Program-made: the position numbers and the translations under genes | NCBI GenBank assembly: GCA_017963105.1 | Contig: JAGCTY010000175.1 | Span: 51-64,050 of the forward strand | Direction of reading: 5' to 3' | Source of the DNA: Lentisphaeria bacterium | GTDB taxonomy: Bacteria > Verrucomicrobiota > Lentisphaeria > Victivallales > UBA1829 | DNA: 64,000 nucleotides | Shown here: piece by piece, positions 6,623 through 63,887 of the stretch | Position numbering within the stretch: position 1 is the first letter of the stretch | Layout of the letters: every line of letters begins with the position of its first letter | The notes under the pieces: model-generated | Databases searched by the model: none | The model's input: only the letters and a program-made list of their open reading frames with translations | What the model was told of the DNA's origin: nothing

Positions 6623-6647
6623 GTCTGACAGACTTCCGTTCGTTCCA

Positions 6648-6688
6648 AACCGCCCGGACCCTTTGGCCCGGACGGTTTTTGCTTTTTT
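6648..6688 (+). terminator. rho-independent terminator after rpsD
   Basis: A 13-bp imperfect stem, aaccgcccggacc / ggcccggacggtt, with loop cttt, followed by tttttgctttttt. Confidence 0.65.
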
Positions 6689-6858
6689 CGGATTCCGGTT
6701 TCCGCGCGCCCGATTTCGGAATGCCCCTGTCAGTGCCCGCGGCCCGCAACGTTTTTTTCGTTCAAAAAAAAGGTTCTCCCTTGTTTTTTCCCCCTTTGGG
6801 TGTACATTACTAAGGATAAAAAACTTTTCACCATGTATCCGGAGTTTGCAGTTTCACC

Positions 6859-8094: not shown

Positions 8095-8366
8095 CGTTCT
8101 TCTGCCGTTCCGCGTACGGGCTCAAGCCGATCGACAGCCGGAAGCGGCAGGTCGGAAAAGGTCGGAAAAAGAAAGCATTCCGCCCGGAGTTGAACCGGTG
8201 TGAACGTTCGAAAACGCCCGTGCGGACCCCCGCACTGCTGGAATGCCATGTTTTTTGATTTACTGCCGGACTATGGGATAATCAAGCGGTTTTGTCAGGA
8301 TAACAGAAAAACGGAGCGGCGTCCGATGGCGGGAACCCGCCGAACGGGACACGAAACCGTAAGCGC

Positions 8367-10083: not shown

Positions 10084-10386
10084 GCGAATAAACCTTTCGG
10101 ATCGTTGTCGTGCCGGATGAACCGCGGCCCCGCCCGTTTCTTCGCTGCGGACAGGCTTTGCGGACCGCGTCTTCAGGACTATAATTTTGTCCCCGGAGAC
10201 CGATTTTTCAAGCGGGATTCCTCAAAAAAACGGAAAAAGGGGCTTCCGGGACGAATATTCTTTTCAGCGAGAGAGCCGGGGCGCCCGGCAGACCCGGCGG
10301 AGAAACGGTGCGCCGTCTCCCCCTTTTCCTGTTCCATCCACAACGGGCCTTTCGTCCCCGGCATCCATGTTTTTCCGTCTTGCGGT

Positions 10387-10414
10387 TTGCATTTTAGTAA
10401 AAGGGTGCTATAGT
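10387..10414 (+). promoter_or_regulatory. sigma-70-type promoter upstream of nagB (TTGCAT-N16-TATAGT)
   Basis: ttgcat at 10387-10392 and tatagt at 10409-10414, with tgc immediately upstream of the -10 (extended -10). Confidence 0.5.
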
Positions 10415-10503
10415 ATATAGATTAACATGCCGGCGGGCGATGATCCTTTCAGGACATGTCCAAAGGCAAAACAAAAACACGTAAAACAGAAAGCAGGATG
10501 AGT

Positions 10504-11337
10504 ATGGATATCATCGTCATGCCGACCGCCGCGGAAGCGGAACTCCTCACCGCCCGCATCATCGCCGACGCCATCAACGCCAAACCGTTCTACAAACTGG
10601 GACTCGCCACTGGCCGCACCATGGAAAACGTGTATGCCAATCTGGTGAAGATGAACAAGGCCGGCAAGGTCGACTTCTCCCGCGTGATCTCGTTCAACCT
10701 CGACGAATACGTCGGTCTGAAAGGCACCGCCGAGAAGAACAAGGATTCCTACCGCTACTTCATGAATTACCATCTCTTCAACCACGTGAACATCGACAAG
10801 CGCAACACGCACGTGCCGAACGGCTTTGCCCCCGAGGACGAACTTGAGGCCGCGGCCGCCGCCTACGAAGAGGAAATGGAAGACGCCGGCGGCGTGGACA
10901 TGCAGCTCCTCGGCATCGGCCGCAGCGGACATATCGGATTCAACGAGCCGATGTCCTCCTTCTCCAGCCGCACCCGCGTGGTGACGCTCACGAAGACCAC
11001 CTTCGAACAGAACTCCCCGCTCTTCAAGAAGCCGGAAGACATGCCGATGCGCGCCATGACCATGGGCGTGGGAACCTGCCTCGACGCCAAGCGCCTCCTG
11101 CTCCTGGCCACCCACAAGGAAAAAGCCAACATCGTGGCGGCCGCGCTCGAAGGCCCCGTCACCGGCATGATCTCCGCCACCGCGCTCCAGCTCCATGAAA
11201 ACGCGGTCGTGGTCCTGGACGCCGACGCTGCTTCCAAGCTCAAATACAAGGAAGAATACGCGTTCCAGTTCGCCAACGATCCGAAGTGGGCCGCCTACCA
11301 GCCCGCCAAGTGTAAATCCTCCCGCAAAGCGAAGTAA
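10504..11337 (+). CDS. nagB: glucosamine-6-phosphate deaminase
   Basis: Blocks LGLATGRTM...FNLDEYVGL...LLGIGRSGHIGFNEP. The track ORF starts at 10456. I prefer ATG 10504 (MDIIVMP...) because AGGA lies 5 nt upstream. The exact start is uncertain. Confidence 0.88.
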   Translation: MDIIVMPTAAEAELLTARIIADAINAKPFYKLGLATGRTMENVYANLVKMNKAGKVDFSRVISFNLDEYVGLKGTAEKNKDSYRYFMNYHLFNHVNIDKRNTHVPNGFAPEDELEAAAAAYEEEMEDAGGVDMQLLGIGRSGHIGFNEPMSSFSSRTRVVTLTKTTFEQNSPLFKKPEDMPMRAMTMGVGTCLDAKRLLLLATHKEKANIVAAALEGPVTGMISATALQLHENAVVVLDADAASKLKYKEEYAFQFANDPKWAAYQPAKCKSSRKAK

Positions 11338-43328: not shown

Positions 43329-43404
43329 GGATCCTTAGCTCAGTGGTTAGAGCGGAGGTCTCATAAACCTTTGGTCGCTGGTTCGAACCCGGCAGGATCC
43401 ACCA
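43329..43404 (+). tRNA. tRNA with anticodon CAT (elongator Met, or Ile2 if lysidine-modified; not an initiator)
   Basis: Hand-folded 76-nt cloverleaf: acceptor GGATCCT/AGGATCC (G1-C72, so not an initiator), D arm GCTC/GAGC, anticodon stem GAGGT/ACCTT, loop CTCATAA, T arm GCTGG-TTCGAAC-CCGGC, encoded CCA. Confidence 0.9.
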
Positions 43405-43927: not shown

Positions 43928-46525
43928 TCATTTAAAGGATTCTGCCGCGTCTTTTTCAACTCCCAATCCCCCCGCATAACAACCACCAAGAGCCCCTTGT
44001 GCCTCAGCAAGTTCTTGTTCAGCAGCTTTGCGGTACCATTTGACCGCTTCCGTTTTGTTTTCGGATACCCCAGTTCCGCTGAGATAGCAATCTCCCAATG
44101 CACACTGGGCCTCTGCAAGGCCCTGATCAGCGGCTTTCTTAAACCAACTAAATGCGGTGTACTCGTTTTCTGTTACACCTATTCCATTTTCATAGCAGAA
44201 ACCAATGGCTGCCTGAGCCTCTGCATAATCTTGTTCAGCAGCCTTGCGATACCATTTCACTGCTTCTGGTTGATTCTCGCTCACACCGGTCCCAGTAATA
44301 TAGCATTCACCTAACTTGTTCTGTGCTTCTGCAAGTCCCTGCTCAGCCGCCTTCTTATACCAGCTGAAAGCAGCAGATTCATTTTCTGTTACACCTATTC
44401 CATTTTCATAGCAGAAACCAAGGGCTGCCTGAGCCTCTGCATAATCTTGTTCAGCGGCTTTACGAATCCATTTTACTGCTTCTGTCTGGTTTTCACTCAC
44501 ACCGGTTCCAGCAATATAGCATTCCCCCAACTTATACTGTGCGTCTGCGTCTCCTTGTTCAGCCGCCTTCTTATACCAGATAAACGCAGTGTTCTCATTT
44601 ACTGTTACCCCTAGTCCATTCTCATAACAGACCCCCAAAGCATACTGCGCCTCAGGGATATCTTGTTCAGCAGCCTTGCGATACCATTTCACTGCTTCTG
44701 GTTGATTCTCGCTCACACCGGTCCCAGTAATATAGCAATCCCCCAGCTTGGTCTGTGCCAATGCAAGGTCTTGGTCGGCGGCTTTCTTGTACCAGCCGAA
44801 CGCGGCAGATTCATTTTCAGTCACACCTATTCCATTCTCATAACAGCCCCCTAGCATAAGCTGAGCCCAATCCAAACCCTGTTCTGCGGCTTTGCGAAGC
44901 CATTTTACTGCCTCGGTGGGATTAATCTCAGAACCTGTTTCGAAGATATCAAGATAGAAAGATCCGAGTATGAACTGCGCCTCTGCAATGTTCTGTCCCG
45001 CAGCTTTACGAAGCCATTTTTCTGCCAGAGCATTGTCTTGGGTTACCCCAAATCCCTCGGCAAAACAATCACCGTATTGCAACTGCGCCCAAACATCTCC
45101 TGACTCTGCAACAGGTTTCAGGTATTCACAATAGTGTTTCTGCAATTTTGCTGAAGCATTATCCCATGTTTCATCATCATCGTCTATACTCTCGGTAGCA
45201 ATATCCGCGATATCAATAGATAGTCCCTCTTCGGAAAGCGGACGTTTCAGTTGGCTTGCGGAGATTGGTGCGCTAGTATAAAGCCCTTCAAGCCCAATGA
45301 CGGGGAGATGATGAATGTCAACCGCCTTTTCACCGGCCAGACTGAGGTTAAAGCCCATCAGAGAAACGCAATCTCCATCGGCATTGAACCCGAAGATAGC
45401 ATTTTCGAAAACACTGTTGATTGCACGCATGGCATCGCCGACAGTCGTCCGGTTACCGTTGGATGTCTTCATTACCTGAAGCTCCAAATCTCGGCAACGG
45501 AACGGCACGGTCCCCACTTGGACAGACTCCTGAACGGCATTCTTGATTAATCCGTCAGCGGAGGAAATGACACCTTGACCTCGTTCCACCCGGATCAGCG
45601 GTTCATGGGAACACATGTATTGGATAAGCTTCAGCGAGGACGTCGTGTTTAAATTGGCTCTGAACTTTAAGTCTGAACTTGCGTTGCTCGGTATCTGGAA
45701 AACTGCTAAAGTCGTGTCCGGAACTGCATTCGTTAGAGGTTCATTTCCCGCATATACAGGAATGCTGAAATTCTGTGGTACGAAACGAAGGTCCGAATCT
45801 GTGTTGTTTTTGAATGTGATAAAAAATGTCAAGTGGCAGTTTGTTATTTTTGTATTTTGGAGAATCTGCGCTTTCTCTTCAAAAAGATTTGAAAGAGCAC
45901 GTTGGGCGTGTTCGTTCCATTGCGACGTTTTAGTCCTATCATAATCTATTCCGGCATACCCGGAAGTGACCCATTCGAATCCCGCTTTTGCAGAAAACCA
46001 TTTAAAAGGATTCCACCCTTTTATGTTTATATCACCGCCCACATCTACATCCAGCTTGGTTTTTGCTCCCGCGTTGATCTTGGTCGCACTGGATAAGCCC
46101 TTGGATTCATCACGATTCTTGCGGCTTTCTTCCTGATAAAGGCTTTCCGTAGAAAGAAGAATATTTGTGGCGCTGTCCACTTCATAGGCAATTTCGATGG
46201 AATGGATCGTCCACTGGAGCGGAGCACGGTAGAGCAACTGTGCCGCAGAAAACGCTTGTTCAACAGACTGAACCTGAGCATTTGTCAAGGCCGGGTATTT
46301 GCTCCGGATCGTTTCGATTTTTTGTTGTTCGGTTTTGTTGCTTCCGGCGATTTCTTTGAGCTCATTCAAGGCCATTTCCCGTGCGATGGAATTTTCGGAC
46401 GGATTTTTTTGAATGATTTGGTTTTGAGCGTCTTCTACGACGTCCCAGAGATTGTCAGCAAAGACAAAGAGTGAGAATGTGAGGAAGGTGCTGATTACGC
46501 AAAGTGTGACAGGAAAACGCTTCAT
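43928..46525 (-). CDS. secreted protein: unknown N-terminal domain of about 430 aa plus about 12 Sel1 (SLR/TPR-like) repeats
   Basis: 865 aa with a signal peptide (MKRFPVTLCVISTFLTFSLFVFA). The C-terminal half is built from reiterated units A.KWYRKAAEQG.AEAQ..LG.CY..G.GV..N. Confidence 0.85.
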   Translation of the reverse strand: MKRFPVTLCVISTFLTFSLFVFADNLWDVVEDAQNQIIQKNPSENSIAREMALNELKEIAGSNKTEQQKIETIRSKYPALTNAQVQSVEQAFSAAQLLYRAPLQWTIHSIEIAYEVDSATNILLSTESLYQEESRKNRDESKGLSSATKINAGAKTKLDVDVGGDINIKGWNPFKWFSAKAGFEWVTSGYAGIDYDRTKTSQWNEHAQRALSNLFEEKAQILQNTKITNCHLTFFITFKNNTDSDLRFVPQNFSIPVYAGNEPLTNAVPDTTLAVFQIPSNASSDLKFRANLNTTSSLKLIQYMCSHEPLIRVERGQGVISSADGLIKNAVQESVQVGTVPFRCRDLELQVMKTSNGNRTTVGDAMRAINSVFENAIFGFNADGDCVSLMGFNLSLAGEKAVDIHHLPVIGLEGLYTSAPISASQLKRPLSEEGLSIDIADIATESIDDDDETWDNASAKLQKHYCEYLKPVAESGDVWAQLQYGDCFAEGFGVTQDNALAEKWLRKAAGQNIAEAQFILGSFYLDIFETGSEINPTEAVKWLRKAAEQGLDWAQLMLGGCYENGIGVTENESAAFGWYKKAADQDLALAQTKLGDCYITGTGVSENQPEAVKWYRKAAEQDIPEAQYALGVCYENGLGVTVNENTAFIWYKKAAEQGDADAQYKLGECYIAGTGVSENQTEAVKWIRKAAEQDYAEAQAALGFCYENGIGVTENESAAFSWYKKAAEQGLAEAQNKLGECYITGTGVSENQPEAVKWYRKAAEQDYAEAQAAIGFCYENGIGVTENEYTAFSWFKKAADQGLAEAQCALGDCYLSGTGVSENKTEAVKWYRKAAEQELAEAQGALGGCYAGGLGVEKDAAESFK

Positions 46526-46609
46526 TTTTAGCTCTTTGTTTTGTTTGTTATAAGATTATCAACGAGTGAATTAGTTTTTTGAAAAATGTATTCCGCAAAA
46601 TATGGTGTT

Positions 46610-47032
46610 CTAATGAGATTCCTCCCATTGTTTAATAGCATCACTTGAAGCACCCCAAAAACCGGCTTTAAGTCCAGCTTTTCTAAGAACTTCTTTCACC
46701 TTTTCGTTGACGATTATAGCAATAATTAGACCGATGGGGGGAATGAAAGACAAAAGGGTTAGAATAACGACCCATATCGTTTTGAATTTTAGTGCAATCG
46801 ACATTTTTATCACAAAAACAATTGATACAATTTCAAGAATAAGTAATACAATAGAACCAATGCAGTTCATCAGTTCATCCTCGTTGATTTTAAGCGAACT
46901 TTTAAAATGCATTGCGAGCTTTGCCAAGGGGAAAATAACGAAAGGCGGAAAAAGGCCCACTAATTCTTTTTGTGTTGTTGCAATAGCGACGATTTGTTCT
47001 TTGGTAAACTGTTTGTTTTTATAAGTAACCAT
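46610..47032 (-). CDS. small multi-pass membrane protein (hypothetical), paralogue A
   Basis: 140 aa: MVTYKNKQFTKEQIVAIATTQKE..., with three hydrophobic helices. It aligns with the next gene (LSFIPPIGLIIAIIVNEKVKEVLRKAGL versus LSFIPIIGLVVLLVVNSKATKVLKSAGI). Confidence 0.65.
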   Translation of the reverse strand: MVTYKNKQFTKEQIVAIATTQKELVGLFPPFVIFPLAKLAMHFKSSLKINEDELMNCIGSIVLLILEIVSIVFVIKMSIALKFKTIWVVILTLLSFIPPIGLIIAIIVNEKVKEVLRKAGLKAGFWGASSDAIKQWEESH

Positions 47033-47110
47033 CGTTTATTCCCTTGAACAGCTATATGTGATTTCCTGTTATAGCAGATATTATTGGTGCTCGAATTTGC
47101 TGATCGCGGA

Positions 47111-47473
47111 TTAAGAAGCACCGAGTAATCCGATTTCAATTCCCGCGGATTTGAGGACTTTTGTTGCTTTTGAATTAACGACAAGAAGAACGACAAGACC
47201 GATGATGGGAATGAAAGATAAAACAGCTCTGATAACCACCCAAACAGCAGCTGTTTTGAGCGCTATCATTAACTTTACGAAAAAGATAACCGTCAATATG
47301 CTGAACATAAGCGCTAATAAACGAAACAACTGTTCAAGGACATTGCCAGCCATTCCGCACATAAGAAGATAGGAGATGATACGGAAAAGAAGAAAAATGA
47401 GAACGTACTTCTGGTTCTTCGCGATAGCGATAATCTGCTCTTTTGTGAAATGTTCATTTTCGTAGGTATACAT
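47111..47473 (-). CDS. small multi-pass membrane protein (hypothetical), paralogue B
   Basis: Start at ATG 47473 (MYTYENEHFTKEQIIAIAKNQKY...), with AAGGAGA 7 nt upstream; 120 aa. The N-terminal extension in the track ORF was rejected. Confidence 0.65.
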   Translation of the reverse strand: MYTYENEHFTKEQIIAIAKNQKYVLIFLLFRIISYLLMCGMAGNVLEQLFRLLALMFSILTVIFFVKLMIALKTAAVWVVIRAVLSFIPIIGLVVLLVVNSKATKVLKSAGIEIGLLGAS

Positions 47474-48028
47474 ACCTGTTCTCCTTGAAAAAAGTTGAAA
47501 AGATTGTTTCGAAGAAACCGAATCGGCCTCGGTGGGGGTTGCGATTCTGCGCACGAGGTAGCGTCCATTCTGGACGGCACAAAATTAAAAATGCCGGTGT
47601 CCTAATACAAAAAAAGCCGGACGATTCCCCATGCGCGAGTATGAAGGTCCGACCAAGAACCCGATTCCGTGACGATAGAGAAACGCCCAGCAGAAACGGA
47701 GACACAATGCTCCTGCTGGTATTTCGAACACGGAATCAAAAGAATCTTTACAAAACTTGGTCGGTTTTCATACTCTTTTGATGAAATACGGCTGAAAATG
47801 AGCTTGGAACCGAGCAACCACAGATGTGGAGGTCCGTTCCAGCAGGTAATTTACTTCCCTTCCTGAAAAAAGTCAAGCCGTTTTCTCGAAAACTATAAAA
47901 AAAACGGCTAGAAATCACGTGGACGTTCGCCTTGCCCGCAATCTTTCAAAATCTTTCTTTTTTTATTTTACGCTTCTGTATCTGAAGAGCGCATCCGGAT
48001 AACCCGCGCTCGGAAAGGTAAAGAAATT

Positions 48029-50290: not shown

Positions 50291-51019
50291 TCATGCGAAG
50301 AGCGCAGCCTTGCGACCGTCCAGGCCGAATGCCCGGTTCAGGGCGAGGTAGCTGTGATCCACACGCTGCGGGGAATATTTCTTGACGATCTCCGTGATCG
50401 AGTTCAAAAGGCTCCATCGTGTCGGTTCTGCGAACTCCTCGTGCGAGGGCGACTTGAACTCGTGGAACACGGGCAGGATGTCGCAGGAGTTGATGACGCC
50501 AAGCTCGGCAGCGCGCACGATGCAGCTACGGGCTTCATCGTCGTCCCGTAGATAGGCATCTTTCAGCTTCTCGCTGACCGTTTCGACCGTGAGGAAATCG
50601 TCTTCGAGCGATGCAACAGCCCGGTCGATGAGTTCGGCCAGGACAATGCCGCTGGTATGGCGACGTTTGATGACGGTCGTGCCGCCGAAGGCCATGTTCG
50701 TGCAGACGCACACGACGATTCCGGCAGACAGCCCGACGGCAAAACTTTTGTCGTGACTGTTGCGGATGCCGATGCAGCGGTGCCACTCAGGAGAGGCTGA
50801 GCGTGAAATCTCCATCACGCCGAACATCTTCTGCCCGTCACGAGCAAGGCCGAACTTTTCTCCTTCGATGCTCCAGTCGTGCGCCTTGACGACCTCGGTC
50901 ACCGCCTCAATCACGTCGATGTGCGGCACGGGTCGCCAGGTGGCGGTGGAACATGGCGTATCGGTTCTGGCGACCTCGGCTCTGCTCACGAACTTTCCTT
51001 CCTGCATAATCAGTCCCAT
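50291..51019 (-). CDS. DUF932-like phage/plasmid protein
   Basis: 242 aa. KMFGVMEI...IGIRNSHDKSFAVGLSAGIVVCVCTNMAFGG resembles the conserved DUF932 core. Confidence 0.55.
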   Translation of the reverse strand: MGLIMQEGKFVSRAEVARTDTPCSTATWRPVPHIDVIEAVTEVVKAHDWSIEGEKFGLARDGQKMFGVMEISRSASPEWHRCIGIRNSHDKSFAVGLSAGIVVCVCTNMAFGGTTVIKRRHTSGIVLAELIDRAVASLEDDFLTVETVSEKLKDAYLRDDDEARSCIVRAAELGVINSCDILPVFHEFKSPSHEEFAEPTRWSLLNSITEIVKKYSPQRVDHSYLALNRAFGLDGRKAALFA

Positions 51020-51022
51020 GCT

Positions 51023-51814
51023 TCAGCCCGCCTTCCTGTGCGCGGCTTTGCACCGTTCACTGTAAGCACATTCCGAGCAGTTCATGCAGGATTCGACCGG
51101 AAGAAAGATGCCGGTGTTGACGACCTTTTCGATCTGCCCGGCGAGGTAGACGAAGCGGTCGAGGTCGTCCTGGTTCCTGTAGGTGTAGAACTGGTGATGT
51201 GCGGGTGCTTTCGCCTTCGTGAAGACATCGAAGCGGAACATCGGCATCCGACCATGGAGCTGACGGTAGGCGTAGCAGAACGTCGTTGCCTGAAGATCAC
51301 GGTCGGCTTTCCCTGCAGGCCACTTCATCGAAGCGGTCTTCCAGTCGCATATCGTTTCGTCCCCGCCGTCAGTGACAACGAGGTCGAATTCTCCGATGAG
51401 CGGCTTCGACAGTCCCGGCACCTCGACACTGAACGCTTCGGCCACGCTCTTGACCGTGTAGTCATCCGTCCATTCCGCAAGCGCCACATCGAGCATATCG
51501 CAGCCCCGCTGCTCCCAGAACAAGTAATCCTCATCCTGCTTGTAGGTCAGCTTCTCGCAGACCTCGGCTTCGCCTTTGAAGAACACGGAGAAATCTTCCT
51601 TGGCATCCTCGACGGTGTAGTCCGCGCCCTTCATTGCACGTTCGCTGAGAACGGCGTGGAAGGCGCGACCGAAGGGAATGCTCACGGAGGTGCGTTCTGC
51701 CTCGGCGTGCTCGATGTACCGGAAGTAGTAGCGCATCGGGCACGTCAGGTAGGTGTTGAAGGCCGAGTACGACCAGTGCGGTGTCTCACGGACAGTATCA
51801 ATGGAGCGTTCCAT
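51023..51814 (-). CDS. PD-(D/E)XK nuclease, Cas4/RecB-exonuclease-like, with a Cys cluster
   Basis: Start at ATG 51814 (MERSIDTVRETPHWSYSAFNTYLTCPMRYYF), with GGAAAGG 10 nt upstream. Blocks: GEFDLVV...ICDWKT (D...D/E-x-K) and the C-terminal CMNCSECAYSERC, with the N-terminal Cys in LTCP. Confidence 0.7.
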   Translation of the reverse strand: MERSIDTVRETPHWSYSAFNTYLTCPMRYYFRYIEHAEAERTSVSIPFGRAFHAVLSERAMKGADYTVEDAKEDFSVFFKGEAEVCEKLTYKQDEDYLFWEQRGCDMLDVALAEWTDDYTVKSVAEAFSVEVPGLSKPLIGEFDLVVTDGGDETICDWKTASMKWPAGKADRDLQATTFCYAYRQLHGRMPMFRFDVFTKAKAPAHHQFYTYRNQDDLDRFVYLAGQIEKVVNTGIFLPVESCMNCSECAYSERCKAAHRKAG

Positions 51815-51816
51815 GG

Positions 51817-52257
51817 TCAGGCCGCCTTTCCGTTGAGCAGGTCGATGGCGCGGCTGCACTGCGTCCGGCTGAGGTCTTCGAGCGCAGCCACGTTGAACCG
51901 AGCTTTCAGCTGTTCGATAGTGTAGCCGCTCTGTCGCGCCAGATCGAGCAGGAACTTGATCTGCTTGGGCGAGGCGGGAGCATCGGTCGCGGGCTTCTTA
52001 CCGTAGGCGGGCTTGTTCTGCTGCTGTGCGGGCTGCTGAGGTACACTGGTCATCTGCCCGGCATTGACGGTTTCTCCGTGCAGTTCAGCCTCCACGCTAT
52101 CGCGGACCATTGCGAAGGTTTCGTGGATGCGGGCATTGAGCTGTTCGGGCGTGAGGCCATCTGGTAATTCGACCTCTATGGACGCATGGTACGACTGGCT
52201 GGAATACTCCGTATCGGCCGGGACTTTCTTGCTGTAGGATGCGTTGAGTTTCAACAT
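51817..52257 (-). CDS. hypothetical protein (146 aa) with a Q/P-rich linker
   Basis: Open frame in a G+C-rich module, coupled to the downstream nuclease gene (stop 3 nt before its ATG). No family recognised. Confidence 0.55.
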   Translation of the reverse strand: MLKLNASYSKKVPADTEYSSQSYHASIEVELPDGLTPEQLNARIHETFAMVRDSVEAELHGETVNAGQMTSVPQQPAQQQNKPAYGKKPATDAPASPKQIKFLLDLARQSGYTIEQLKARFNVAALEDLSRTQCSRAIDLLNGKAA

Positions 52258-52333
52258 GGTGATTTCCTTTCAAAATTTTGCCCCCGGTAGAACATGTTCC
52301 GAGGGCGGTGTTGAGCGTGATGTGAGGCGGAGA

Positions 52334-53779
52334 TCAGAAACCGCTGGCGGTGCGGATTCGTTCGATCGTGCGCTTGGTCTGGACGTACTCGCGCTCCTTC
52401 TGGCGCTGTGCGATGGCGACCTCGCGGACCTTGCGGCTCATGACGGCAGATTCGTCGTACATGGCTTTGAGCTTAGCCTTCATCGCTTCGATGTTCGCGG
52501 TCAGCTCGTCCAGCGGGTTTGTGGGTTCATTGTTCGGGGTGATCGTCTGCGCGGGGGCAGACACGACGTGGGTGATGGTGTTGGTGTCGATCATCGTGGA
52601 TTTCTCCTTGGGGTTGTTGGTATTGATGGTGGTGGATTCTTTGTGGTGAGGTGCAGTCTGCGTGATTTCCGCGTGCTGTTCCTGCGGTGCGGGCTGCTGA
52701 GCCGTGGCTTCCTGCGTCTGTCGTTCCGTCTTCTGCATACGCATGGGCATGGCGACATACTGGCCGACACCGCCGCTCGCAACGAACGGACAAAGGGCAT
52801 CGCTGAACTCGATTCTCGTGTGACCTTTGCTGAGAAGATGCAGAAGGATGTCTTTTTTGATGGTGAGGGCGAAGTCGCCCCAGGACGAATCAAACTCGGC
52901 AGGGATGCTGAACTCGTGACCGTCTCCGTCACGCAGGGTAAGGAAGCCGACAGAATCGCGATAAAGCTTGATTCCGTTCGATGGGATTGCATCGGCCACA
53001 CTTTTCAGGAAGAACTTCAGGCGGTCGGCGTATTCCACAGTGAAGCTGACATAATGCTTGAGCGCCTTGCTGTCGGGCATAACGCGCTTCCAGTTGGGGT
53101 ACGCTCCGGGCAGAGCTCTTGCCGTCCAGCGCCATTTGCCTATCCTGACCGTGAACATGACGTAGAGGTCGTTGCTCCAGACAGTGATATTGCCCTCACC
53201 AGTGGTCTTCGTCGCCATGAGAGCGAACGGGAACGGAAGCGTGAGCTCGTCGAGATCGAACTTGTACGGGAAGTTGAACAGTTCTTTGGCGTTCATGGCC
53301 GTAATACCGTCCCGGCTGAGGTTGATGCCATTCAGAATGCTCTTCGGATCGTCCAAGTTTACCTGTGGAGCAGCCTGGTTCAAAACCTCGACGAAGTTTT
53401 CCGGCAGAGGCGAGGTCGTGACGGAATTGCCTTGCGGTTCTTCGGCTGTCGTCCATTCACCCTCAATTGGTGCAAGTGGCACATCATCGACATGGAGTTT
53501 TTCGTCCTTGAAGTCGAACGAGAGGTTCTTGTTCCGGCAGTTTCTCACAAGGGAGCGGAAGAAATCGAAGTCCACAGCGATCTTGAAGACATCCGAGATT
53601 TCCGTGTTTGCTCTGAACTCGATTTCTTCGGTCATGCTGTGCGTCCGGAAGAAAAGCGCGTTGCTGCTTGCTTCGATCTGCACGGCACGATACACCGGGA
53701 TCGGTGACGACCGGCAGACAAGTTTCCCCAGAGCAGCCAATGCCCCGACAAGTTCGGTTTTGTTGAGAGTCGTTTTCAT
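52334..53779 (-). CDS. DNA polymerase III beta sliding-clamp homologue with a C-terminal extension of about 110 aa
   Basis: 481 aa. The N-terminus LNKTELVGALAALGKLVCRSSPIPVYRAVQIEASSNALFFRTHS mirrors the DnaN start. YPNWKRVMP corresponds to the clamp FPDY..VIP motif. A Q/T/N-rich linker and a coiled-coil tail follow. Confidence 0.65.
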   Translation of the reverse strand: MKTTLNKTELVGALAALGKLVCRSSPIPVYRAVQIEASSNALFFRTHSMTEEIEFRANTEISDVFKIAVDFDFFRSLVRNCRNKNLSFDFKDEKLHVDDVPLAPIEGEWTTAEEPQGNSVTTSPLPENFVEVLNQAAPQVNLDDPKSILNGINLSRDGITAMNAKELFNFPYKFDLDELTLPFPFALMATKTTGEGNITVWSNDLYVMFTVRIGKWRWTARALPGAYPNWKRVMPDSKALKHYVSFTVEYADRLKFFLKSVADAIPSNGIKLYRDSVGFLTLRDGDGHEFSIPAEFDSSWGDFALTIKKDILLHLLSKGHTRIEFSDALCPFVASGGVGQYVAMPMRMQKTERQTQEATAQQPAPQEQHAEITQTAPHHKESTTINTNNPKEKSTMIDTNTITHVVSAPAQTITPNNEPTNPLDELTANIEAMKAKLKAMYDESAVMSRKVREVAIAQRQKEREYVQTKRTIERIRTASGF

Positions 53780-55065: not shown

Positions 55066-56514
55066 TTACAACAAAACACCCCGTTGATAGGCGAAGAAGT
55101 TCTTCTTGCCGATTATGTTTCTCCAGCGTCTTGTGCGCCAACGCTTTATGGCTAACAGTTCGTTAACTGCCATACCAGGAATTCTTTTGTAGTGGTTGAT
55201 GAATCCGTTTATCCTTTGAACGGCTTTTATCAGATAATAGTCGTTCTTGGTTTTCGCATATTCATACAACATAGAAAGATATCCTGCGCATGCCTGCTGT
55301 TTCTTGTTTCGCAATATATGCCATTTGCCGCGTTCGAGCTTTACTCCTAACAAGGAAATGTGATTGATTTTCACAATCTTCGTTTTATCCTGGTTGACAG
55401 GACATTTCATTGTCGTTTCGAGGAAAACGATAAGTTTAGCCCTTATTCTTTTCGCAGCTTGTTTAGAATGGCAGAATACGGTTACATCATCAGCATAGCG
55501 TACGAAGCGGTGACCACGACGAGTAATCTCCTTGTCCAGTTCGTCTAAATAGAGCATAGAAGCCAACCAGGGAGATAACACGCTGCCTTGGGGTGTTCCT
55601 ATACGATTCCTTGTCAGTGTGCCGTGTCTGCCGATAACAAGAGGAGTAAGAAAAGCAACTACAAGCTTTACCACTCTCTTGTCAGCAATATGAACACGGA
55701 GTTTCTGAACAAGACGATCATGAGGAACATTGTCAAAGAAAGCTTTCAAATCCATGGTTATCCCATATTGGTAGCCTTCTTCACGAATACGATTAACTTC
55801 AGCAATCGCATCAGCAACGCCACGTTTGGGCTGATATGCAAAGGAGTAAGGACTCCAGGGATTCTCAGGCATATTAGCAGTTACAGCCTGTAGAATCATT
55901 GTTTGTACAACACGGTCCATAACAGTAGCAATTCCCAAGGTCCGCATCTTTCCATTAGCTTTCGGGATCTGTACGGTTAGAATCTTTCCAGGATAGTATT
56001 TACCATGAAGAATATCCTGCCGTATCTTTTCCCTGGCAGATGGAGATGCAAGAAGAGGATCACAAACATCCTTTACTGTTCTATTGTCGTATCCGCAAGC
56101 CTTATTCGGTTCGCTTCTAACAGACGATAGAGCAAGGAGGAAGTTTCCATCATCAACGATTCGTTCCAGTAAGTCTGAAACTTTAACAACCGGAATTGAA
56201 TGAGAGCCCAGCATAGGATCATATATCCGCCGCTGAGAATACTTCCGATTGTTTGAACTTGCGGAGTAGTCACGATCACCATCACAGAAGGTGGTTTTCT
56301 GATTGGTATCTGATTGTCCGTCTTTTAGAGTGTTCCCTACTGTCGCATTATTTCCTTTCTTCAGCGGCAGTGTTTCATGAGAGCAGCCCGGTTGAGCCTT
56401 ACGAGTGTTACGCCGGTAAGCTTGGACATCTCGTAGATTGGCAGTATGCTTCGTGGCAGCAAAAGGCTGTGGCGAAGCGGGTGATATACTATTCTTTGAC
56501 TTGTCTTTTATCAT
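55066..56514 (-). CDS. group-II-intron-type reverse transcriptase/maturase (RT plus X/thumb, no endonuclease domain) with an N-terminal extension of about 115 aa
   Basis: 482 aa. Blocks: LLERIVDDGNFLLAL (RT0), RTLGIATVMDRVVQ, GTPQGSVLSPWLASMLYLDELD, the active site FVRYADDVTVF, and a maturase-like C-terminus (INGFINHYK). The AT-rich codon usage differs from the host. Confidence 0.85.
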   Translation of the reverse strand: MIKDKSKNSISPASPQPFAATKHTANLRDVQAYRRNTRKAQPGCSHETLPLKKGNNATVGNTLKDGQSDTNQKTTFCDGDRDYSASSNNRKYSQRRIYDPMLGSHSIPVVKVSDLLERIVDDGNFLLALSSVRSEPNKACGYDNRTVKDVCDPLLASPSAREKIRQDILHGKYYPGKILTVQIPKANGKMRTLGIATVMDRVVQTMILQAVTANMPENPWSPYSFAYQPKRGVADAIAEVNRIREEGYQYGITMDLKAFFDNVPHDRLVQKLRVHIADKRVVKLVVAFLTPLVIGRHGTLTRNRIGTPQGSVLSPWLASMLYLDELDKEITRRGHRFVRYADDVTVFCHSKQAAKRIRAKLIVFLETTMKCPVNQDKTKIVKINHISLLGVKLERGKWHILRNKKQQACAGYLSMLYEYAKTKNDYYLIKAVQRINGFINHYKRIPGMAVNELLAIKRWRTRRWRNIIGKKNFFAYQRGVLL

Positions 56515-56792: not shown

Positions 56793-58319
56793 TCAAATCA
56801 AGCCATCCTCTCTCAGGATAACTTCAATTTTATCAATTGTCCTGGAGTCTGCCAGCGGGAGCGCATCTATAATCAGGCGTCTACGACAGCTCAATGGCTC
56901 TTCGATTACGTCATCCTCCGCTTCACCATTTCCTATTGGTGCGGGCAGAGATAAAGAGGGAAGATTCTCAATAGCTTTTTGCTTTGATTCCATTGCTATA
57001 TGAGAATAGTGTTCTGTCATCGAAGGATTCCCATGACCAACAATTGAAGCTACAACAGAATATGGGACTCCGGCGTTAGCACAGAATGAGACAAAGGTGT
57101 GCCGGAAAGAATGAAGTCCATACGCGTTTGCGGAATTTTTACGACGACCAAAAGTTTCTTCTTTATCCAATGTCGTTTCAAGTCCAGTTGAGCATCGAAT
57201 GATTTTCATTACATCCTTGGCAATTCCGCTGGGATTATACCTGTATCGTGCCGCGACATTTGGCAAAACGAAATCATCTTTAGTTCTATTTTCTCCGCGC
57301 CACAATAGAGCTTCATTTAAGGCAACAAATAAATCTGGAGCAATAGGCAAAGTTACAGCTCGTCCTCCAGTTTTAGTTGATGTTTTCCTTGGAATGAACG
57401 AAATCACTTTTTTGTCCAAATCAATATTATTCCATTTCATCAGACAACCATCTTGCCCGCGACATCCTGTATAACAAAAGAGACAGAGCAAGACTCGCAT
57501 TTCGTCTTTGAACATCGGAATGTATTCTTTTTTGACAATAACCCGTTCCCGCTTTCGTTCAGTGGTGAGGCGTTCAACTTCAGTTTCATAAAAGAAGCCG
57601 GTTTGGAATCCATCGAATATTGCTCTGACCTGTTCTGCCGAAAACTCTTTTCTTGATACAACCTCATTTCTTTTGTGCTGAATCCTATCAAATGGATTCG
57701 TATCAAGCGCAGCCGGATCCATTAGATGTTTGAAAACCAATCTCAAAGCCATAGCATATTTATTATATGTAATGGCGGATATTCCCGTGCCCCATAGCCA
57801 CTGCATAAAGTCGAGCGCCATATTGTGATCAACATCAGATATGAACTTTATTTCTGGATGATCCTTGGAAATCCATTGTATGAATCGCTTAAATTGTCCC
57901 TCATATTTCTTTGCTGTGCTGTCTGCACATTCTGTTCTGGTCGGCTGCCTTAAGAAAGTGTCCCAGGCAGAATGAATAGAGAGACCCGATTGCCTCTTTA
58001 TTTTTTTATTCTCCGCGATAATATTCGCAAACTCTTCCTTTGTTGTGGCGTGAAGTATTTTCTGAAAACCCTCAGCGGCCTTTTCTGCCTCAATTCTGTT
58101 TTTACAATGGGTTCCGTCCGGGTTCAGAAGCGGAGTAATGCTGGTTTTGCCCTTGCACATGCTTCTTAAGTAGAACCATTTCTTTACCTTCGTAATAGAC
58201 CCTGCTCCTTTTTCACGATAACGTCTACGTTTTCTTTGAGGGGAAGCCCAAACGGCAGTCTTGTTTTGTGCCTCCAGGTTTGTTGCACCATTGTCGGGGG
58301 AGATAGATTCGTTCAGCAT
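56793..58319 (-). CDS. tyrosine-type site-specific recombinase (phage integrase family)
   Basis: 508 aa. The C-terminal catalytic region reads ...TGCRGQD..., HSFRHTFVSFCANAGVPYSVVASIVGHGNPSMTEHYSH (the R...HxxR...H...Y pattern). It lies 160 nt from attR. Confidence 0.9.
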   Translation of the reverse strand: MLNESISPDNGATNLEAQNKTAVWASPQRKRRRYREKGAGSITKVKKWFYLRSMCKGKTSITPLLNPDGTHCKNRIEAEKAAEGFQKILHATTKEEFANIIAENKKIKRQSGLSIHSAWDTFLRQPTRTECADSTAKKYEGQFKRFIQWISKDHPEIKFISDVDHNMALDFMQWLWGTGISAITYNKYAMALRLVFKHLMDPAALDTNPFDRIQHKRNEVVSRKEFSAEQVRAIFDGFQTGFFYETEVERLTTERKRERVIVKKEYIPMFKDEMRVLLCLFCYTGCRGQDGCLMKWNNIDLDKKVISFIPRKTSTKTGGRAVTLPIAPDLFVALNEALLWRGENRTKDDFVLPNVAARYRYNPSGIAKDVMKIIRCSTGLETTLDKEETFGRRKNSANAYGLHSFRHTFVSFCANAGVPYSVVASIVGHGNPSMTEHYSHIAMESKQKAIENLPSLSLPAPIGNGEAEDDVIEEPLSCRRRLIIDALPLADSRTIDKIEVILREDGLI

Positions 58320-58933: not shown

Positions 58934-58961
58934 TTGACATTTTGAAAACACGTGTTAAATT
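58934..58961 (+). promoter_or_regulatory. promoter of the 25-codon ORF (TTGACA-N16-TAAATT with TG extended -10)
   Basis: ttgaca at 58934-58939 and taaatt at 58956-58961, preceded by tgt. Confidence 0.55.
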
Positions 58962-59024
58962 AGAGAATAGAGTGGTGGGATAGCCACCAGGCCGCAACAA
59001 AAAACCGTTATCAGGAGGTAAAAA

Positions 59025-59102
59025 ATGCCGACATTGGAATGCGTTTCTCTCGAAACACAAAACACGTCATGCCACACTGATTGTGGACCCGTCAGCGACT
59101 GA
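59025..59102 (+). CDS. 25-aa Cys-rich peptide, candidate RiPP precursor
   Basis: Own translation: MPTLECVSLETQNTSCHTDCGPVSD. AGGAGG lies 7 nt upstream, with a consensus promoter 60 nt upstream and a perfect terminator 24 nt downstream. It is not in the ORF track (too short). Confidence 0.6.
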   Translation: MPTLECVSLETQNTSCHTDCGPVSD

Positions 59103-59125
59103 CAGTGCTTGTTTCAGAAAAAAAG

Positions 59126-59162
59126 GCATCTTGCCTGTAAAAACAGGCAAGATGCTTTTTTT
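59126..59162. terminator. strong (bidirectional-looking) rho-independent terminator
   Basis: gcatcttgcctg (59126-59137) pairs with caggcaagatgc (59144-59155), a 12-bp perfect stem with loop taaaaa, flanked by aaaaaaa and ttttttt. Confidence 0.85.
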
Positions 59163-59380: not shown

Positions 59381-60085
59381 ATGATATGCCGTTTTCTACT
59401 GAGTTTTCTGGAAATAATCGACAAGCTATGTCGGCAGGGGAAAAAAAGAATATGTTTCAACATATATATGGATTTTTTGAAAAAAAATGCATTAGAAGAT
59501 GGCAGGATGCAGGAGAAGAAAAGTATTCACTATAATCCTTATGAGGGGACAAACATTGTTCTTATTGAAAAACTAATCAAAAGCGGGGTCATTTCCCCGG
59601 AAGATCATATAGCCGACATAGGGTGTGGCGCCGGTATATTCCTGCTCTATTTGGCATCACGGGGTTTTTACAATTTGTCGGGTTACGAGATAGACCAGAC
59701 GCTTTATGAACAAGGTCAAAAAAACATAGAGTCTTTTTACTCGAAGCGAAAAGATTCAAGTAATAAAATAGAATTGCTCAACGTGGATGCCGTTAACACA
59801 GAATATCCTTCTGACATTACATGCTTTTATTTGTTTAATACTTTTTATGATAAGGATACATATCTTTCCTGGATAAAAAAAGTATATTCGTCTTGGCGTG
59901 ATAATCAAAGAAAAATAAAAATAATCATACTGTTTCCAACAGTCGCATCAATGGGCGCATTGCGCGAATGCAATTGGCTTCGAGAAACAGGACGAGTTAT
60001 TGACAAATCACATCCTTGCTGGCGATGTGTCAATTTCCTTGTTTATGAAACGATTGATGAAAAAGATTCCCAGATTCCTGTATGA
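59381..60085 (+). CDS. class I SAM-dependent methyltransferase
   Basis: 234 aa with SAM motif I, HIADIGCGAGIFLLYLASRG, and GAGGT 6 nt before the ATG. Very AT-rich. Its 3' end overlaps the convergent SPASM gene by 43 nt. Confidence 0.75.
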   Translation: MICRFLLSFLEIIDKLCRQGKKRICFNIYMDFLKKNALEDGRMQEKKSIHYNPYEGTNIVLIEKLIKSGVISPEDHIADIGCGAGIFLLYLASRGFYNLSGYEIDQTLYEQGQKNIESFYSKRKDSSNKIELLNVDAVNTEYPSDITCFYLFNTFYDKDTYLSWIKKVYSSWRDNQRKIKIIILFPTVASMGALRECNWLRETGRVIDKSHPCWRCVNFLVYETIDEKDSQIPV

Positions 60086-61270
60086 GGATTATATAGACAC
60101 CTTGGGTTTTTGGTATGCAAATCGTTTGACAAGGACAGCCCGAGGGGACGACAATCTTTGCATGCAAAACGAAATTCGCAATCTGCACAATGTTCTATGT
60201 TGGAAAAGTTCCAGCACCAGCATTTCTTTAGTACAGAAGATGATAATATCATATCGATGGAGGATTCGAGGATATTTCCATATGTGATGTTTCTCTCGAA
60301 TTCGCAGGGGAAAACATCACCATTTGAAGCGACTACAAGTTTGCCATGCCAGCATGAGTTGTTCAAACTGTTGTGAATAAATGTCTTTTTTGACGAGTGG
60401 AAATTTGGTTTCGTAATGAATGCTTTTTCCAGTGCTTTTTGATGATCCGGAAAATGCTTGTTTTGAGTTCCATTATATACATTTCGTATGATGTCGCATC
60501 GGGAACACCTCATACCCATTTTGTTGACAAATCCAAGAATGTCTTCTATAAAGTCCTGATTCTCTTTCATAATTACGACAGAAGCGGAAACTTCAACATT
60601 ATGTTTTAGCAGATAGTCAACATTCTTGCAGCGTTTTTCAAAACTACCAGGAACAGTTGTGATAAGATCATGTACTGTTGCATTATGTCCATAAACTGAA
60701 ACTTTCACGCGTGTTTGCGTAGCTATGATAGTTTCAAGTAATTCCTTAGACATAATTGTAGCATTCGTAAAGATTGTAACATCGACATTGAACTTGGATA
60801 CGAAGAGAAGAATTTCTTTCAAATCAGAGCTGCAACATGGTTCCCCTCCAATCAATAATAATGATACGTTCTGCATGATGTTGGACCAGTTCGCAAACAA
60901 CTCTTTTCCATTGTTCAAGGGATAATGTGTTTTCTTCCATATTATGAAAATCCCCTTCATAACAGTGGATGCAGCGCAGATTGCATTGGTGAGTTATTTC
61001 TAACCAGACAACCTCAAGATCAGTATCTGAATTGTCAGTATTTGTTATGTCAAACACTCTTGGTCTGAAGGTCCGACATAACAAGCCGTTATCTGCCAGA
61101 AGATCAAGATAACTGTTCGAATAAGTGTCTTGATGAATATATTGTTGGATTATTTCGCAGGCTATGTCGTTAACCGAATAGACTTTGCCGGAGACAAAGG
61201 AGTAAATAGCCCCATTTTTTGCTCCTTGGACAAAAACAACATCTTTATTGATCTCGAAAACGGGTGTCAT
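60043..61270 (-). pseudogene. RRE-radical SAM-SPASM peptide-maturase gene interrupted by a +1 frameshift (two overlapping ORFs, 61270-60824 and 60960-60043)
   Basis: ORF1 has a PqqD-like N-terminus plus the CxxxCxxC motif (THQCNLRCIHCY). ORF2 has LLLIGGEPCC..., then SPASM CWHGKLVVASNGDVFPC and CADCEFRFACKDC. The frames switch near 60861-60875, between ...CELVQHHAE and VSLLLIGGEP. Confidence 0.75.
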
Positions 61271-61272
61271 AT

Positions 61273-62895
61273 CTAATCCCTTTCCAATGGAGTTGATTTT
61301 ATGATTTCATCAAGTTCAGAGCATAACAACTGGTATTTCCTGGCACGTTGTTCTTCTTCCTGGATAAATGATGGCAGCATGGATTTACAGTATTGTAAAT
61401 CTGTTGCTACATAGAGGTGGCCAAAGAATTCTTTCAGTGTTTGAAACTCGATCTCTTCTTCTTTTTGGATGACATCCTGATATCGTTGTACTTTCCTTGT
61501 CAAATGTCTTGCTTTTTCGAAACAATGTTTCAACCTGTAAAACTGATATTTAATCTTGTTTGCAGATGGCAGAAAATCAGAACGAAGGAAATCTACAACA
61601 GGTAAAATTTCCTCGTTTTGGAATTTGTATCCATACACATTAAGGAAAGAAAAATCATCCCTCAACAGGCCATCCCTTTTCACAAATTCATACATTTTAG
61701 TTCCATACAACAGTTGCAAATGCAGCCCCCCATAATGGTAAAAATTAGCTGACCTCAATTTGCAAAGATATCTGTATGTCTCACATAGTCTCTCTTTGGT
61801 AGAGTATGGATTGATGGAAATGATCCCATATCTCGCCCAAATGCCATTCTCGGATAACAGAGTTATTGCATCTTGATTCTCCTGAAGCGTGGCACGTTTA
61901 TTGTAGAGAAGTCTGTCCATTTCGTTTCCGGCATCAACACCTATGAATAAATAATAGAATCCCGCTTCCGACATAAGTGTCAACAAGTCTCGTTTATCTG
62001 ATCTAATCGAGTTGGCTTTTGCGAACCCGGAAAAAACCAGATTTAAATTCAAAGAAATAATGCGTTCGGAAAAATCAACCAACCGAGCATAGTTTTCCTG
62101 GGAATCAATATCAAATATGTTATCATCTCCGAAATGGAAATCTCGTACACCGTATCTTTTTGCGACATACTCAATTTCATCAACCAGACGCATTGGTGTT
62201 TTATACTCAAAACGTCCTTTTCTAGAACAACAAAACGTGCAAGCCCCGTTGCAAACATTGCTTTTTGACAATAAGGAGTAGACCTTTAATCTGTTGTTCT
62301 CTGTGGTATCACTTTCATAGTAATCAAAGGCAGGATATCTGTTAATATCCGGTGTAACCCAGCGAGTTTTGTGATTATAGTCGTTCCGGGTTGCTACATT
62401 GGGGTCATGGAATTCCTGGTGCACATGATTGCCTGCATAAAAATCCATCAGTCTCTGTATCGGTTCTTCGCCGTCTCCAATGATATAGTAGTCAGCATTG
62501 CTTTCCGCTTCGATTATTAAACGATAATTCATGGAAATAAACTGACCGCCATAAATGATGACTGAATTCGTTTTCGATTTCAGAAAACGACTTGCGGCAA
62601 CCACTCTTTTGTAGTTTGTAATGAATACGGAAAAACCATAAAAATCGTAATCCAATGGGATTGTATTGCATATTTCTTCAGCCGTTTGGTTCTCATGGTA
62701 ATATTTGATCGTGACAAAAAATCCATGGCTTCGAAGATATGACGCCAGATAATCTACTCCATTGTTGCCATACTTGTGCTGTTCAATGATGGAAACAAGT
62801 AATATCTTCTTTACACTTGAAGATATTGAGTTGTCCGGCTGCTTCTGCATTTTCTTGTCCAGGAAAAGATTATTGTCTGACGGCTGCAAATGCAT
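61273..62895 (-). CDS. B12-binding-domain radical SAM enzyme (class B)
   Basis: 540 aa with an N-terminal Rossmann-like B12-binding region (KKILLVSIIEQH...VIIYGGQF...YYIIGDGE) and the radical SAM motif SNVCNGACTFCCS (CxxxCxxC). The start could instead be the internal Met at 62850. Confidence 0.8.
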   Translation of the reverse strand: MHLQPSDNNLFLDKKMQKQPDNSISSSVKKILLVSIIEQHKYGNNGVDYLASYLRSHGFFVTIKYYHENQTAEEICNTIPLDYDFYGFSVFITNYKRVVAASRFLKSKTNSVIIYGGQFISMNYRLIIEAESNADYYIIGDGEEPIQRLMDFYAGNHVHQEFHDPNVATRNDYNHKTRWVTPDINRYPAFDYYESDTTENNRLKVYSLLSKSNVCNGACTFCCSRKGRFEYKTPMRLVDEIEYVAKRYGVRDFHFGDDNIFDIDSQENYARLVDFSERIISLNLNLVFSGFAKANSIRSDKRDLLTLMSEAGFYYLFIGVDAGNEMDRLLYNKRATLQENQDAITLLSENGIWARYGIISINPYSTKERLCETYRYLCKLRSANFYHYGGLHLQLLYGTKMYEFVKRDGLLRDDFSFLNVYGYKFQNEEILPVVDFLRSDFLPSANKIKYQFYRLKHCFEKARHLTRKVQRYQDVIQKEEEIEFQTLKEFFGHLYVATDLQYCKSMLPSFIQEEEQRARKYQLLCSELDEIIKSTPLERD

Positions 62896-63333: not shown

Positions 63334-63362
63334 ATTATAGCACCATGTTCATATTATTTCAA
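63334..63362 (-). promoter_or_regulatory. near-consensus sigma-70 promoter of the radical SAM operon (TTGAAA-N17-TATAAT with TGC extended -10)
   Basis: On the minus strand, ttgaaa at 63362-63357, a 17-nt spacer ending tgc, and tataat at 63339-63334. Confidence 0.6.
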
Positions 63363-63581: not shown

Positions 63582-63610
63582 TTGACATGAGCATGGAGCG
63601 AGGTTATATT
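63582..63610 (+). promoter_or_regulatory. sigma-70 promoter (TTGACA-N17-TATATT)
   Basis: ttgaca at 63582-63587 and tatatt at 63605-63610, with tttttcctgaaaaa upstream. Confidence 0.6.
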
Positions 63611-63647
63611 TACATAACCATTCACCTCAACCCAGGAGGATTTTTCC

Positions 63648-63824
63648 ATGAAACACAGCTTCTACGACGTCAAAACGAAAAAGAAAGTCCAGGCCGAAGT
63701 GACCAAGGCCGTCAAGTTCGGCAAAGGCACTCGCACTCGTTATGCGTTCAAGGCCCTTACGAAGGACGGCCGCAATCTGACCGCGTTTGTGAAGAAGGAA
63801 GACTGGGACAAGTTCAAAAAGTGA
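63648..63824 (+). CDS. 58-aa lysine-rich protein (possibly nucleic-acid binding)
   Basis: Own translation: MKHSFYDVKTKKKVQAEVTKAVKFGKGTRTRYAFKALTKDGRNLTAFVKKEDWDKFKK. AGGAGGA lies 7 nt upstream, a consensus promoter lies upstream and a terminator follows. Preferred over the 80-aa track ORF in another frame. Confidence 0.65.
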   Translation: MKHSFYDVKTKKKVQAEVTKAVKFGKGTRTRYAFKALTKDGRNLTAFVKKEDWDKFKK

Positions 63825-63853
63825 TCTGATTCCCTCAGCCTCTTAGATTTGTC

Positions 63854-63887
63854 TGGCGCTCCGGATTCGTCCGGGGCGTCTTTTTTT
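63854..63887 (+). terminator. rho-independent terminator
   Basis: ggcgctccgga pairs with tccggggcgtc (11 bp including two G-U pairs), with loop ttcg, followed by tttttttt. Confidence 0.8.

Follow-up and report, generated by a model that had tools for sequence, protein, structure and literature searches.

A 25-codon gene as the probable precursor gene of an uncharacterised radical-SAM RiPP-type cassette

In the sactipeptide and ranthipeptide systems (SkfA/SkfB, AlbA, SCIFF/CteB and PapB), a short Cys-containing precursor is encoded beside the gene for a radical-SAM/SPASM enzyme; the acceptor residue is Thr for CteB and Asp for PapB. PqqA/PqqE and MftA/MftC pair precursors of 20–35 residues with a SPASM maturase, have no dedicated exporter, and carry the modified residues in a conserved motif near the C-terminus of the precursor. 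The PqqA motif is Glu-x3-Tyr, and the C-terminus of MftA is Gly-Val-Tyr. B12-binding radical-SAM enzymes are encoded in the clusters of C-methylated RiPPs, such as the proteusins (polytheonamide PoyB/C) and bottromycin. The locus described here has likenesses to each of these systems. Within the window, by which we mean the whole stretch of 64,000 nt that was analysed, a 25-codon ORF lies next to genes for a class-I SAM-dependent methyltransferase, a radical-SAM/SPASM enzyme and a B12-binding radical-SAM enzyme (B12-rSAM). The encoded peptide belongs to a family with a conserved motif near the C-terminus, in which Thr and Asp stand at i+2 and i+3 from a Cys, as would suit the acceptors of CteB and PapB.

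Precursor genes of this size fall under the length limits of gene callers. The first-pass annotation had described the ORF as unannotated, and the small gene is indeed uncalled on every near-identical contig of the element, which leaves the cluster with the appearance of three orphan enzymes. Once the peptide is taken into account, the cluster becomes a testable biosynthetic pathway.

The peptide gene and its expression signals

The ORF runs on the + strand from the ATG at 59025 to the TGA at 59102 and, read directly, translates to MPTLECVSLETQNTSCHTDCGPVSD. Cys residues occupy positions 6, 16 and 20, confirming the 25 codons and three Cys given by the first-pass annotation, and the promoter, 5' hairpin and ribosome-binding site that it listed are likewise present. 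The σ70/SigA-type promoter (58934–58961, +) comprises TTGACA (58934–58939), a 16-nt spacer that ends in TGT and thereby supplies a TG extension, and TAAATT (58956–58961). With 10 of 12 consensus positions it shares the top hexamer score in a scan of 56–62 kb and is the only site of that score with a TG extension. Over this interval, promoter-like sites taken together are no commoner than chance (13 seen, 14.4 expected from shuffles), and the promoter alone therefore proves nothing. The closest relative of the locus, represented by L099 and L102, keeps the extended -10 element as TGnTA.ATT, and similar TTGACA/TATAAT-like elements lie 5' of the small ORF in L107, L111 and L015. Downstream of the promoter, a 5'-UTR hairpin of the form GGTGG-loop-CCACC, GGTGGGATAGCCACC, spans approximately 58973–58989 (+); L099/L102 has the same stem and a loop with a single change. 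The Shine-Dalgarno sequence AGGAGG (59013–59018, +) lies 6 nt 5' of the ATG, and every related locus has a strong counterpart of the GGAGG/AGGAG type 5–10 nt 5' of its start codon. The predicted transcript, from about 58968 to about 59162, is about 195 nt long with stable hairpins, and folds better than 200 of 200 shuffles (z = -4.7).

The peptide gene is followed by an intrinsic terminator (59119–59162) made up of an A-run, a stem, a 4-nt loop and a T-run. Its GC-rich stem, with arms GCATCTTGCCTGT / ACAGGCAAGATGC at 59126–59155, is perfect over 13 bp; the terminator and its flanking A- and T-runs had been correctly noted, with a stem length of 12 bp that has to be amended. If the A-run pairs with the T-run, the stem reaches 20 bp (59119–59162, 95% complementary), and by this symmetry the terminator could act in both directions. 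It is the strongest of 14 terminator-like sites in the region, for which 4.8 were expected, and its stem differs from that of L099/L102 by three compensatory double substitutions. The T-run and the methyltransferase ATG at 59381 are 219 nt apart, in agreement with the approximately 220 nt first estimated. A hairpin after the stop codon was found in 9 of 11 loci examined, comprising all nine main-family loci and with a T-run in most, which matches the layout of a structural gene with a leaky terminator that had been proposed for this locus. In the two distant subfamilies, L114 has only a weak post-stop hairpin without a T-run, and L116 has no hairpin, with a few nucleotides separating the ORF from the methyltransferase ATG. 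From these signals, we infer that the peptide gene may be highly expressed.

The enzyme genes and the state of the cassette in the window

The methyltransferase (59381–60085, +; 234 aa) belongs to a small dedicated class-I family, for which 1.84 billion proteins yielded only 22 representatives at E<=1e-30. The family is marked by the motifs NPYEGTN and PTVASMGAxR[EQ]C.WL and by a C-terminal CxxC. One source calls the protein 42 codons shorter (192 aa); the family-conserved N-terminus reaches back to the start at 59381. Three Cys near the C-terminus (REC.WL ... CxxC) are invariant in the family and may form a metal or cluster site, which would be unusual in a class-I methyltransferase.

The radical-SAM/SPASM gene (60043–61270, −) is split into ORFs of 148 aa (60824–61270) and 305 aa (60043–60960), and its 3' end overlaps that of the methyltransferase gene by 43 nt. 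It encodes the radical-SAM site CNLRCIHC followed by GGEP, CX13GX4C and CX2CX5CX2C, with Pfam matches to Radical_SAM and SPASM; the gene thus has the CX3CX2C site and SPASM auxiliary-cluster domain of enzymes of radical-SAM-modified RiPPs, in frameshifted form in the window. The nearest solved structures are the peptide-modifying enzymes SkfB, PqqE, CteB and SuiB, and the top NCBIfam matches include StsB, AlbA, MftC, WgkB and CcpM, all under cutoff. The N-terminal domain of the SPASM enzyme, some 85 residues long, is conserved and matched nothing in a Pfam search or a PDB profile search. An AlphaFold model from a three-sequence alignment was too poor for use (mean pLDDT 39.8), and the predicted order of strand-strand-strand-strand-helix-helix would fit an RRE without being diagnostic of one.

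The third enzyme is encoded by a 540-aa ORF (61273–62895, −) with B12-binding and Radical_SAM domains. Its homologues align from approximately residue 29, and one source calls a protein of 525 aa; OxsB is the sole solved relative (E = 3e-4). About 440 nt 5' of its start lies a candidate promoter with 11 of 12 consensus positions (TTGAAA, a 17-nt spacer with TG, TATAAT; 63334–63362, −), which we tentatively suggest could drive the B12-rSAM and SPASM genes. Downstream of this promoter, and about 330 nt 5' of the B12-rSAM start, is a 20-codon ORF, METKSGTSLGKQGMLCTYSE (63290–63228, −), with a GGTGA ribosome-binding site. The segment 63228–63362 may simply be a new promoter region of this gene pair. 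Further along, within 63582–63880, a gene for a 58-aa lysine-rich protein, MKHSFYDVKTKKKVQAEVTKAVKFGKG... (63648–63824, +), has an 11/12 promoter (63582–63610), a GGAGG ribosome-binding site and a GC-rich terminator (63855–63880); the gene is richer in GC than the radical-SAM cluster.

Two rearrangements distinguish the cassette in the window. The B12-rSAM/SPASM pair (60043–62895) is inverted relative to the peptide and methyltransferase genes and converges on the latter; L099 shares the inversion, and all other lineages (L013, L014, L015, L105, L107, L109 and L111) are co-linear instead. A search for inverted repeats flanking the inverted segment found nothing convincing. In addition, a 4-nt tandem duplication, ATTG ATTG (60853–60856, −), shifts the SPASM frame just before GGEP. 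The same split (148 aa + 277/305 aa) is called in contigs of at least five independent metagenome samples and is therefore not an assembly error of the window record; the frameshift is fixed in the population. Damage extends further in the closest relative. In L099 (Ga0310690_10000800, 5810–8630), and also in L102, all three enzyme genes are affected: in L099 the B12-rSAM is a truncated form joined to an HTH segment, the methyltransferase gene carries a frameshift, and the SPASM gene, itself frameshifted near codon 11, lacks its start frame. Neither locus shows damage to the peptide gene, promoter or terminator. Beyond the L099 peptide gene there is a second, unrelated radical-SAM gene (9766–10950).

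The sublineage of the window and L099 thus has decaying enzymes and an intact, unusually conserved peptide gene. Persistence of the peptide gene is partly a matter of its small target size; the remainder may reflect residual selection. The peptide may be a relic in this sublineage or may have an enzyme-independent role. Because of the SPASM frameshift, the pathway may stop short of a mature product here: the peptide gene of the window is intact and probably transcribed, and full maturation in this organism is doubtful, so that we regard a functional pathway in the window genome as rather unlikely.

The cassette in the window is a horizontally acquired segment of 38% GC, located on an integrase-bearing island in a genome of 62% GC. 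GC content drops from about 62% to 38–58% immediately after a tRNA-Met gene (43329–43404) and is 38% over the radical-SAM cluster; upstream of the peptide gene lie a tyrosine-recombinase integrase (508 aa; 56793–58319, −), a reverse transcriptase (482 aa; 55066–56514, −) for which Rfam gave no group II intron RNA, and, as part of the low-GC segment, genes with DUF932, PDDEXK and beta-clamp-like products (50291–53779, −), with phage- or ICE-like genes further upstream of the reverse transcriptase. The GC drop and these neighbours together identify the cluster as foreign DNA on a mobile island. L099 also lies in a genome of about 61% GC. The segment 43329–64000 has the appearance of an integrative mobile element or composite island whose far end is beyond the window. 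Its low-GC start (43928–47554) holds a gene for an 865-aa protein (43928–46525, −), the C-terminal half of which apparently consists of many Sel1-like repeats as read from the translation, and two genes (46610–47032 and 47111–47554, −) for paralogous small proteins with predicted membrane segments and the common motif FTKEQI(V/I)AIA. The window records a cassette that entered a high-GC host by way of a mobile island and has since decayed through inversion and frameshift, a history relevant to the prediction of products from sequence alone.

Recurrence of the cassette and the nature of the small gene

Outside this sublineage, the usual cassette is encoded on one strand in the order peptide, hairpin, class-I methyltransferase, B12-rSAM and SPASM enzyme. 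A homologous small ORF lies beside the methyltransferase in 12 of 12 distinct related lineages found via the B12-rSAM or the methyltransferase, and the peptide motif occurs in none of 80 control loci around unrelated B12-rSAM genes; linkage of the putative precursor gene to a radical-SAM maturase gene thus holds across diverged loci. When B12-rSAM homologues of 40–50% identity were traced to their contigs, each locus was co-linear, with a small ORF of 25–36 codons followed by the methyltransferase, B12-rSAM and SPASM genes. A scan of metagenome DNA with the methyltransferase motif PTVASMGAxR[EQ]C gave seven loci, all seven with a small ORF upstream. Two distant methyltransferase relatives (28% and 34% identity) also have a small ORF beside them, encoding MPEIENVTNSQDVECVTDCGPLDSCNP... 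and MKDEKNPELVCVTEKDENLGCYTDCGPSYPCSP.... Contigs with identical enzymes are near-identical copies of the same element and are uninformative on conservation. A reference-genome scan with the B12-rSAM alignment, which picked up generic motifs and had relatives of 22–28% identity among the matches listed, served as a negative control; viral contigs, scanned with both the peptide and the methyltransferase alignment, gave no match. A protein-database search with a 50-aa in-frame extension of the peptide matched only itself, and very short products appear not to be retrievable by this type of search.

The four-gene cassette is the only conserved unit, as neighbouring genes change from locus to locus, and neither a protease nor a transporter is conserved with it on the contigs of the B12-rSAM homologues. 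The complete set is found repeatedly in anaerobes of gut and rumen type, Megasphaera among them. Outside the family, the nearest B12-rSAM (29% identity) belongs to an unrelated small-molecule cluster that has no peptide of this kind. The family is small and sharply bounded, yet common in gut Megasphaera, for which a single 90% cluster of the B12-rSAM counts 322 member sequences.

An alignment of 11 distinct peptide sequences shows an N-terminal block, P-[TE]-[LI]-x-[CN]-V-[TS], then an acidic variable linker of 6–8 residues and then the core C-x-T-D-C-G-P, which is invariant in the family and corresponds to residues 16–22 of the window peptide. The core is mostly followed by F-W-(S/N)-D-D-D, and the window peptide is a short form without this tail; family peptides end in VSD, AN or FW(S/N)DDD. 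In the distant subfamilies L114 (3041–6786) and L116 (4869–8476) the peptides are longer, additional Cys-x-Pro repeats follow the core (CNP...CNP and CSP...CEP), and in both the core His, His17 in the window, is replaced by Val or Tyr. L114 also has Asn in place of Cys in the N-terminal block, and its gene order differs (B12-rSAM, peptide, methyltransferase, SPASM).

Conservation of the reading frame in related loci had been named at the outset as the point on which the gene would stand or fall, and the frame is kept. Across the 15 codons of the conserved blocks in 10 sequences, 4, 2 and 15 of 15 columns are variable at codon positions 1, 2 and 3, respectively, and pooled pairwise comparison gives pS 0.77 and pN 0.09 (pN/pS 0.12). 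Substitutions fall nearly all at third codon positions, and the frame is therefore under strong purifying selection. ORF lengths differ among lineages by whole codons only, and the frame is open across all 12. Against L099/L102, 75 of the 78 nt of the ORF are identical (96%), the differences being two synonymous changes and L9H; identity is 85.5% for the enzyme genes, 83.8% for the whole promoter-ORF-terminator segment and about 87% for the 5' UTR. Rfam, at gathering and permissive thresholds, returned no RNA family for the region. With a homologous ORF in every related lineage examined and the amino-acid sequence as the object of selection, the view of 59025–59102 as a real small gene is upheld, and we regard it as almost certainly coding.

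These comparisons bear directly on what else the small gene could be. A non-coding small RNA, or a chance intergenic frame, might be suspected from a short ORF that gene callers miss and from a transcript that would span only some 195 nt and form stable hairpins, but such a transcript accounts neither for the three-base periodicity of the substitutions and the low pN/pS nor for a frame kept open with length changes in multiples of three; the lack of an Rfam match and the faster divergence of the 5' UTR than of the ORF point the same way. The codon-level comparison effectively refutes this reading, which we consider scarcely credible. Only a little more probable, and still very improbable, is a regulatory leader peptide, the translation of which would set read-through of the terminator and so attenuate the methyltransferase operon, its product having no role. 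The layout of nearly all loci, with the ORF, a terminator-like hairpin within 15–45 nt and then the operon, is what such a leader would show. Attenuators, however, keep regulatory codons and alternative pairings, whereas here 8–11 residues are invariant with third positions free, and no structure in the predicted fold overlaps the ORF as an antiterminator in competition with the terminator. We rejected transcription attenuation on these grounds, namely an amino-acid motif conserved under free synonymous change, no competing structure, and no hairpin in L116, where the methyltransferase begins a few nucleotides past the ORF; in L114, moreover, the peptide gene sits between the B12-rSAM and methyltransferase genes.

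A peptide under selection might also act as a small accessory or metal-binding protein, with its Cys and Asp as ligands, and help the enzymes as a scaffold, a carrier or a donor of Fe-S clusters or metal, without being their substrate. The very short, acidic sequence with invariant Cys, Asp and Cys would suit such a role, as would the failure of any protease or exporter to travel with the cassette and the better conservation of the ORF than of the decaying enzyme genes in the window/L099 sublineage. Nevertheless, a peptide of 25–45 residues tightly linked to a maturase-related SPASM enzyme is the classical signature of a precursor, and a conserved N-terminal block, variable linker and invariant core are typical of a leader with its core. 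The sole Cys pair found family-wide, Cys-x3-Cys, is too little for a stable metal site, and His17 gives way to Tyr or Val in distant members. We therefore hold an accessory protein to be improbable, and favour the reading as an enzyme substrate.

Proposed function and relation to known systems

We propose that the cassette is an uncharacterised one of the radical-SAM RiPP type, and that the 25-residue peptide is likely to be the precursor on which its three enzymes act. The first-pass annotation had suggested a RiPP-type precursor for the neighbouring radical-SAM and methyltransferase genes, and the co-occurrence, invariant core and coding signature support it, with modification of the peptide as the predicted step. 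In such a pathway, the terminator would let a short peptide transcript build up in excess, and read-through would supply the enzyme genes. The N-terminal block P-T-L-x-C-V-S/T could serve as the recognition element, possibly bound by the N-terminal domain of the SPASM enzyme, which would then make a radical cross-link in the core. From the core residues and the relatives of the SPASM enzyme, the most likely chemistry would be a Cys-to-Thr/Asp thioether of the sacti- or ranthipeptide type. The B12-rSAM may add at least one C-methyl group or perform other B12-radical chemistry, and the class-I methyltransferase may add an O-, N- or S-methyl group. A SPASM enzyme, a B12-rSAM and a dedicated methyltransferase acting on a minimal substrate of about 22 residues would make the cassette attractive for new radical peptide chemistry.

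The absence of a conserved protease or transporter would be unusual for a secreted RiPP, and counts against a precursor. Together with the 25-residue length and a peptide gene that outlasts its enzymes, it is compatible with a cofactor-like product. Tentatively, and at low probability, the cassette may yield a new small peptide-derived molecule from the core. Such a product could, like PQQ or mycofactocin, stay inside the cell as a cofactor or metal-binding compound instead of being secreted as a bacteriocin; SPASM cross-linking, B12-radical chemistry and SAM methylation would together make it, a combination undescribed for any RiPP.

Neither the peptide nor the cassette has a model in NCBIfam, Pfam, Rfam or PADLOC: NCBIfam at E<=1 gave no match to any of three family peptides, and PADLOC found no defence system. 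We found no description of either in the literature, the coverage of which was incomplete, so that this is absence of evidence only. Compared with the sacti- and ranthipeptides, the precursor is much shorter, lacks a long leader and has only two or three Cys, and the cassette adds a B12-rSAM and a dedicated class-I methyltransferase with no conserved protease or ABC exporter. Membership in the SCIFF/ranthipeptide, sactipeptide and other curated Cys-rich radical-SAM families was rejected, as no peptide model matched and the maturase scored far under the cutoffs (bits against cutoff: StsB 103/625, AlbA 88/850, SkfB 66/300). The CcpM, GeoRSP, ScmE/F and RiPP C-methyltransferase families likewise failed, with all enzyme scores far under cutoff (CcpM 61/500, GeoRSP 73/400, ScmE 88/400). 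In particular, the B12-rSAM reaches 36 bits against a cutoff of 282 for TIGR03975, the RiPP maturation radical SAM C-methyltransferase, and 45 against 750 for ApyD, and the peptide lacks the NHLP/nitrile-hydratase-type leader of proteusin-type RiPPs.

Comparison with the cofactor pathways bears out the original remark on the length of the peptide, which falls in the range of PqqA/MftA-type precursors; the likeness goes no further, and membership in either family fails. For PQQ, the SPASM enzyme scores 80 bits with PqqE against a cutoff of 381, the peptide has no Glu-x3-Tyr, and PqqB/C/D genes are not found nearby; for mycofactocin, it scores 90 bits with MftC against 265, the peptides lack the C-terminal Gly-Val-Tyr, and MftB/D/E/F genes are not found nearby. 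Because all enzyme scores are far below cutoff and the peptides are unmatched, the family lies outside the radical-SAM families compared here. Its resemblance to the SCIFF/ranthipeptide, sactipeptide, PQQ, mycofactocin, CcpM, GeoRSP, ScmE/F and RiPP C-methyltransferase systems is one of logic only.
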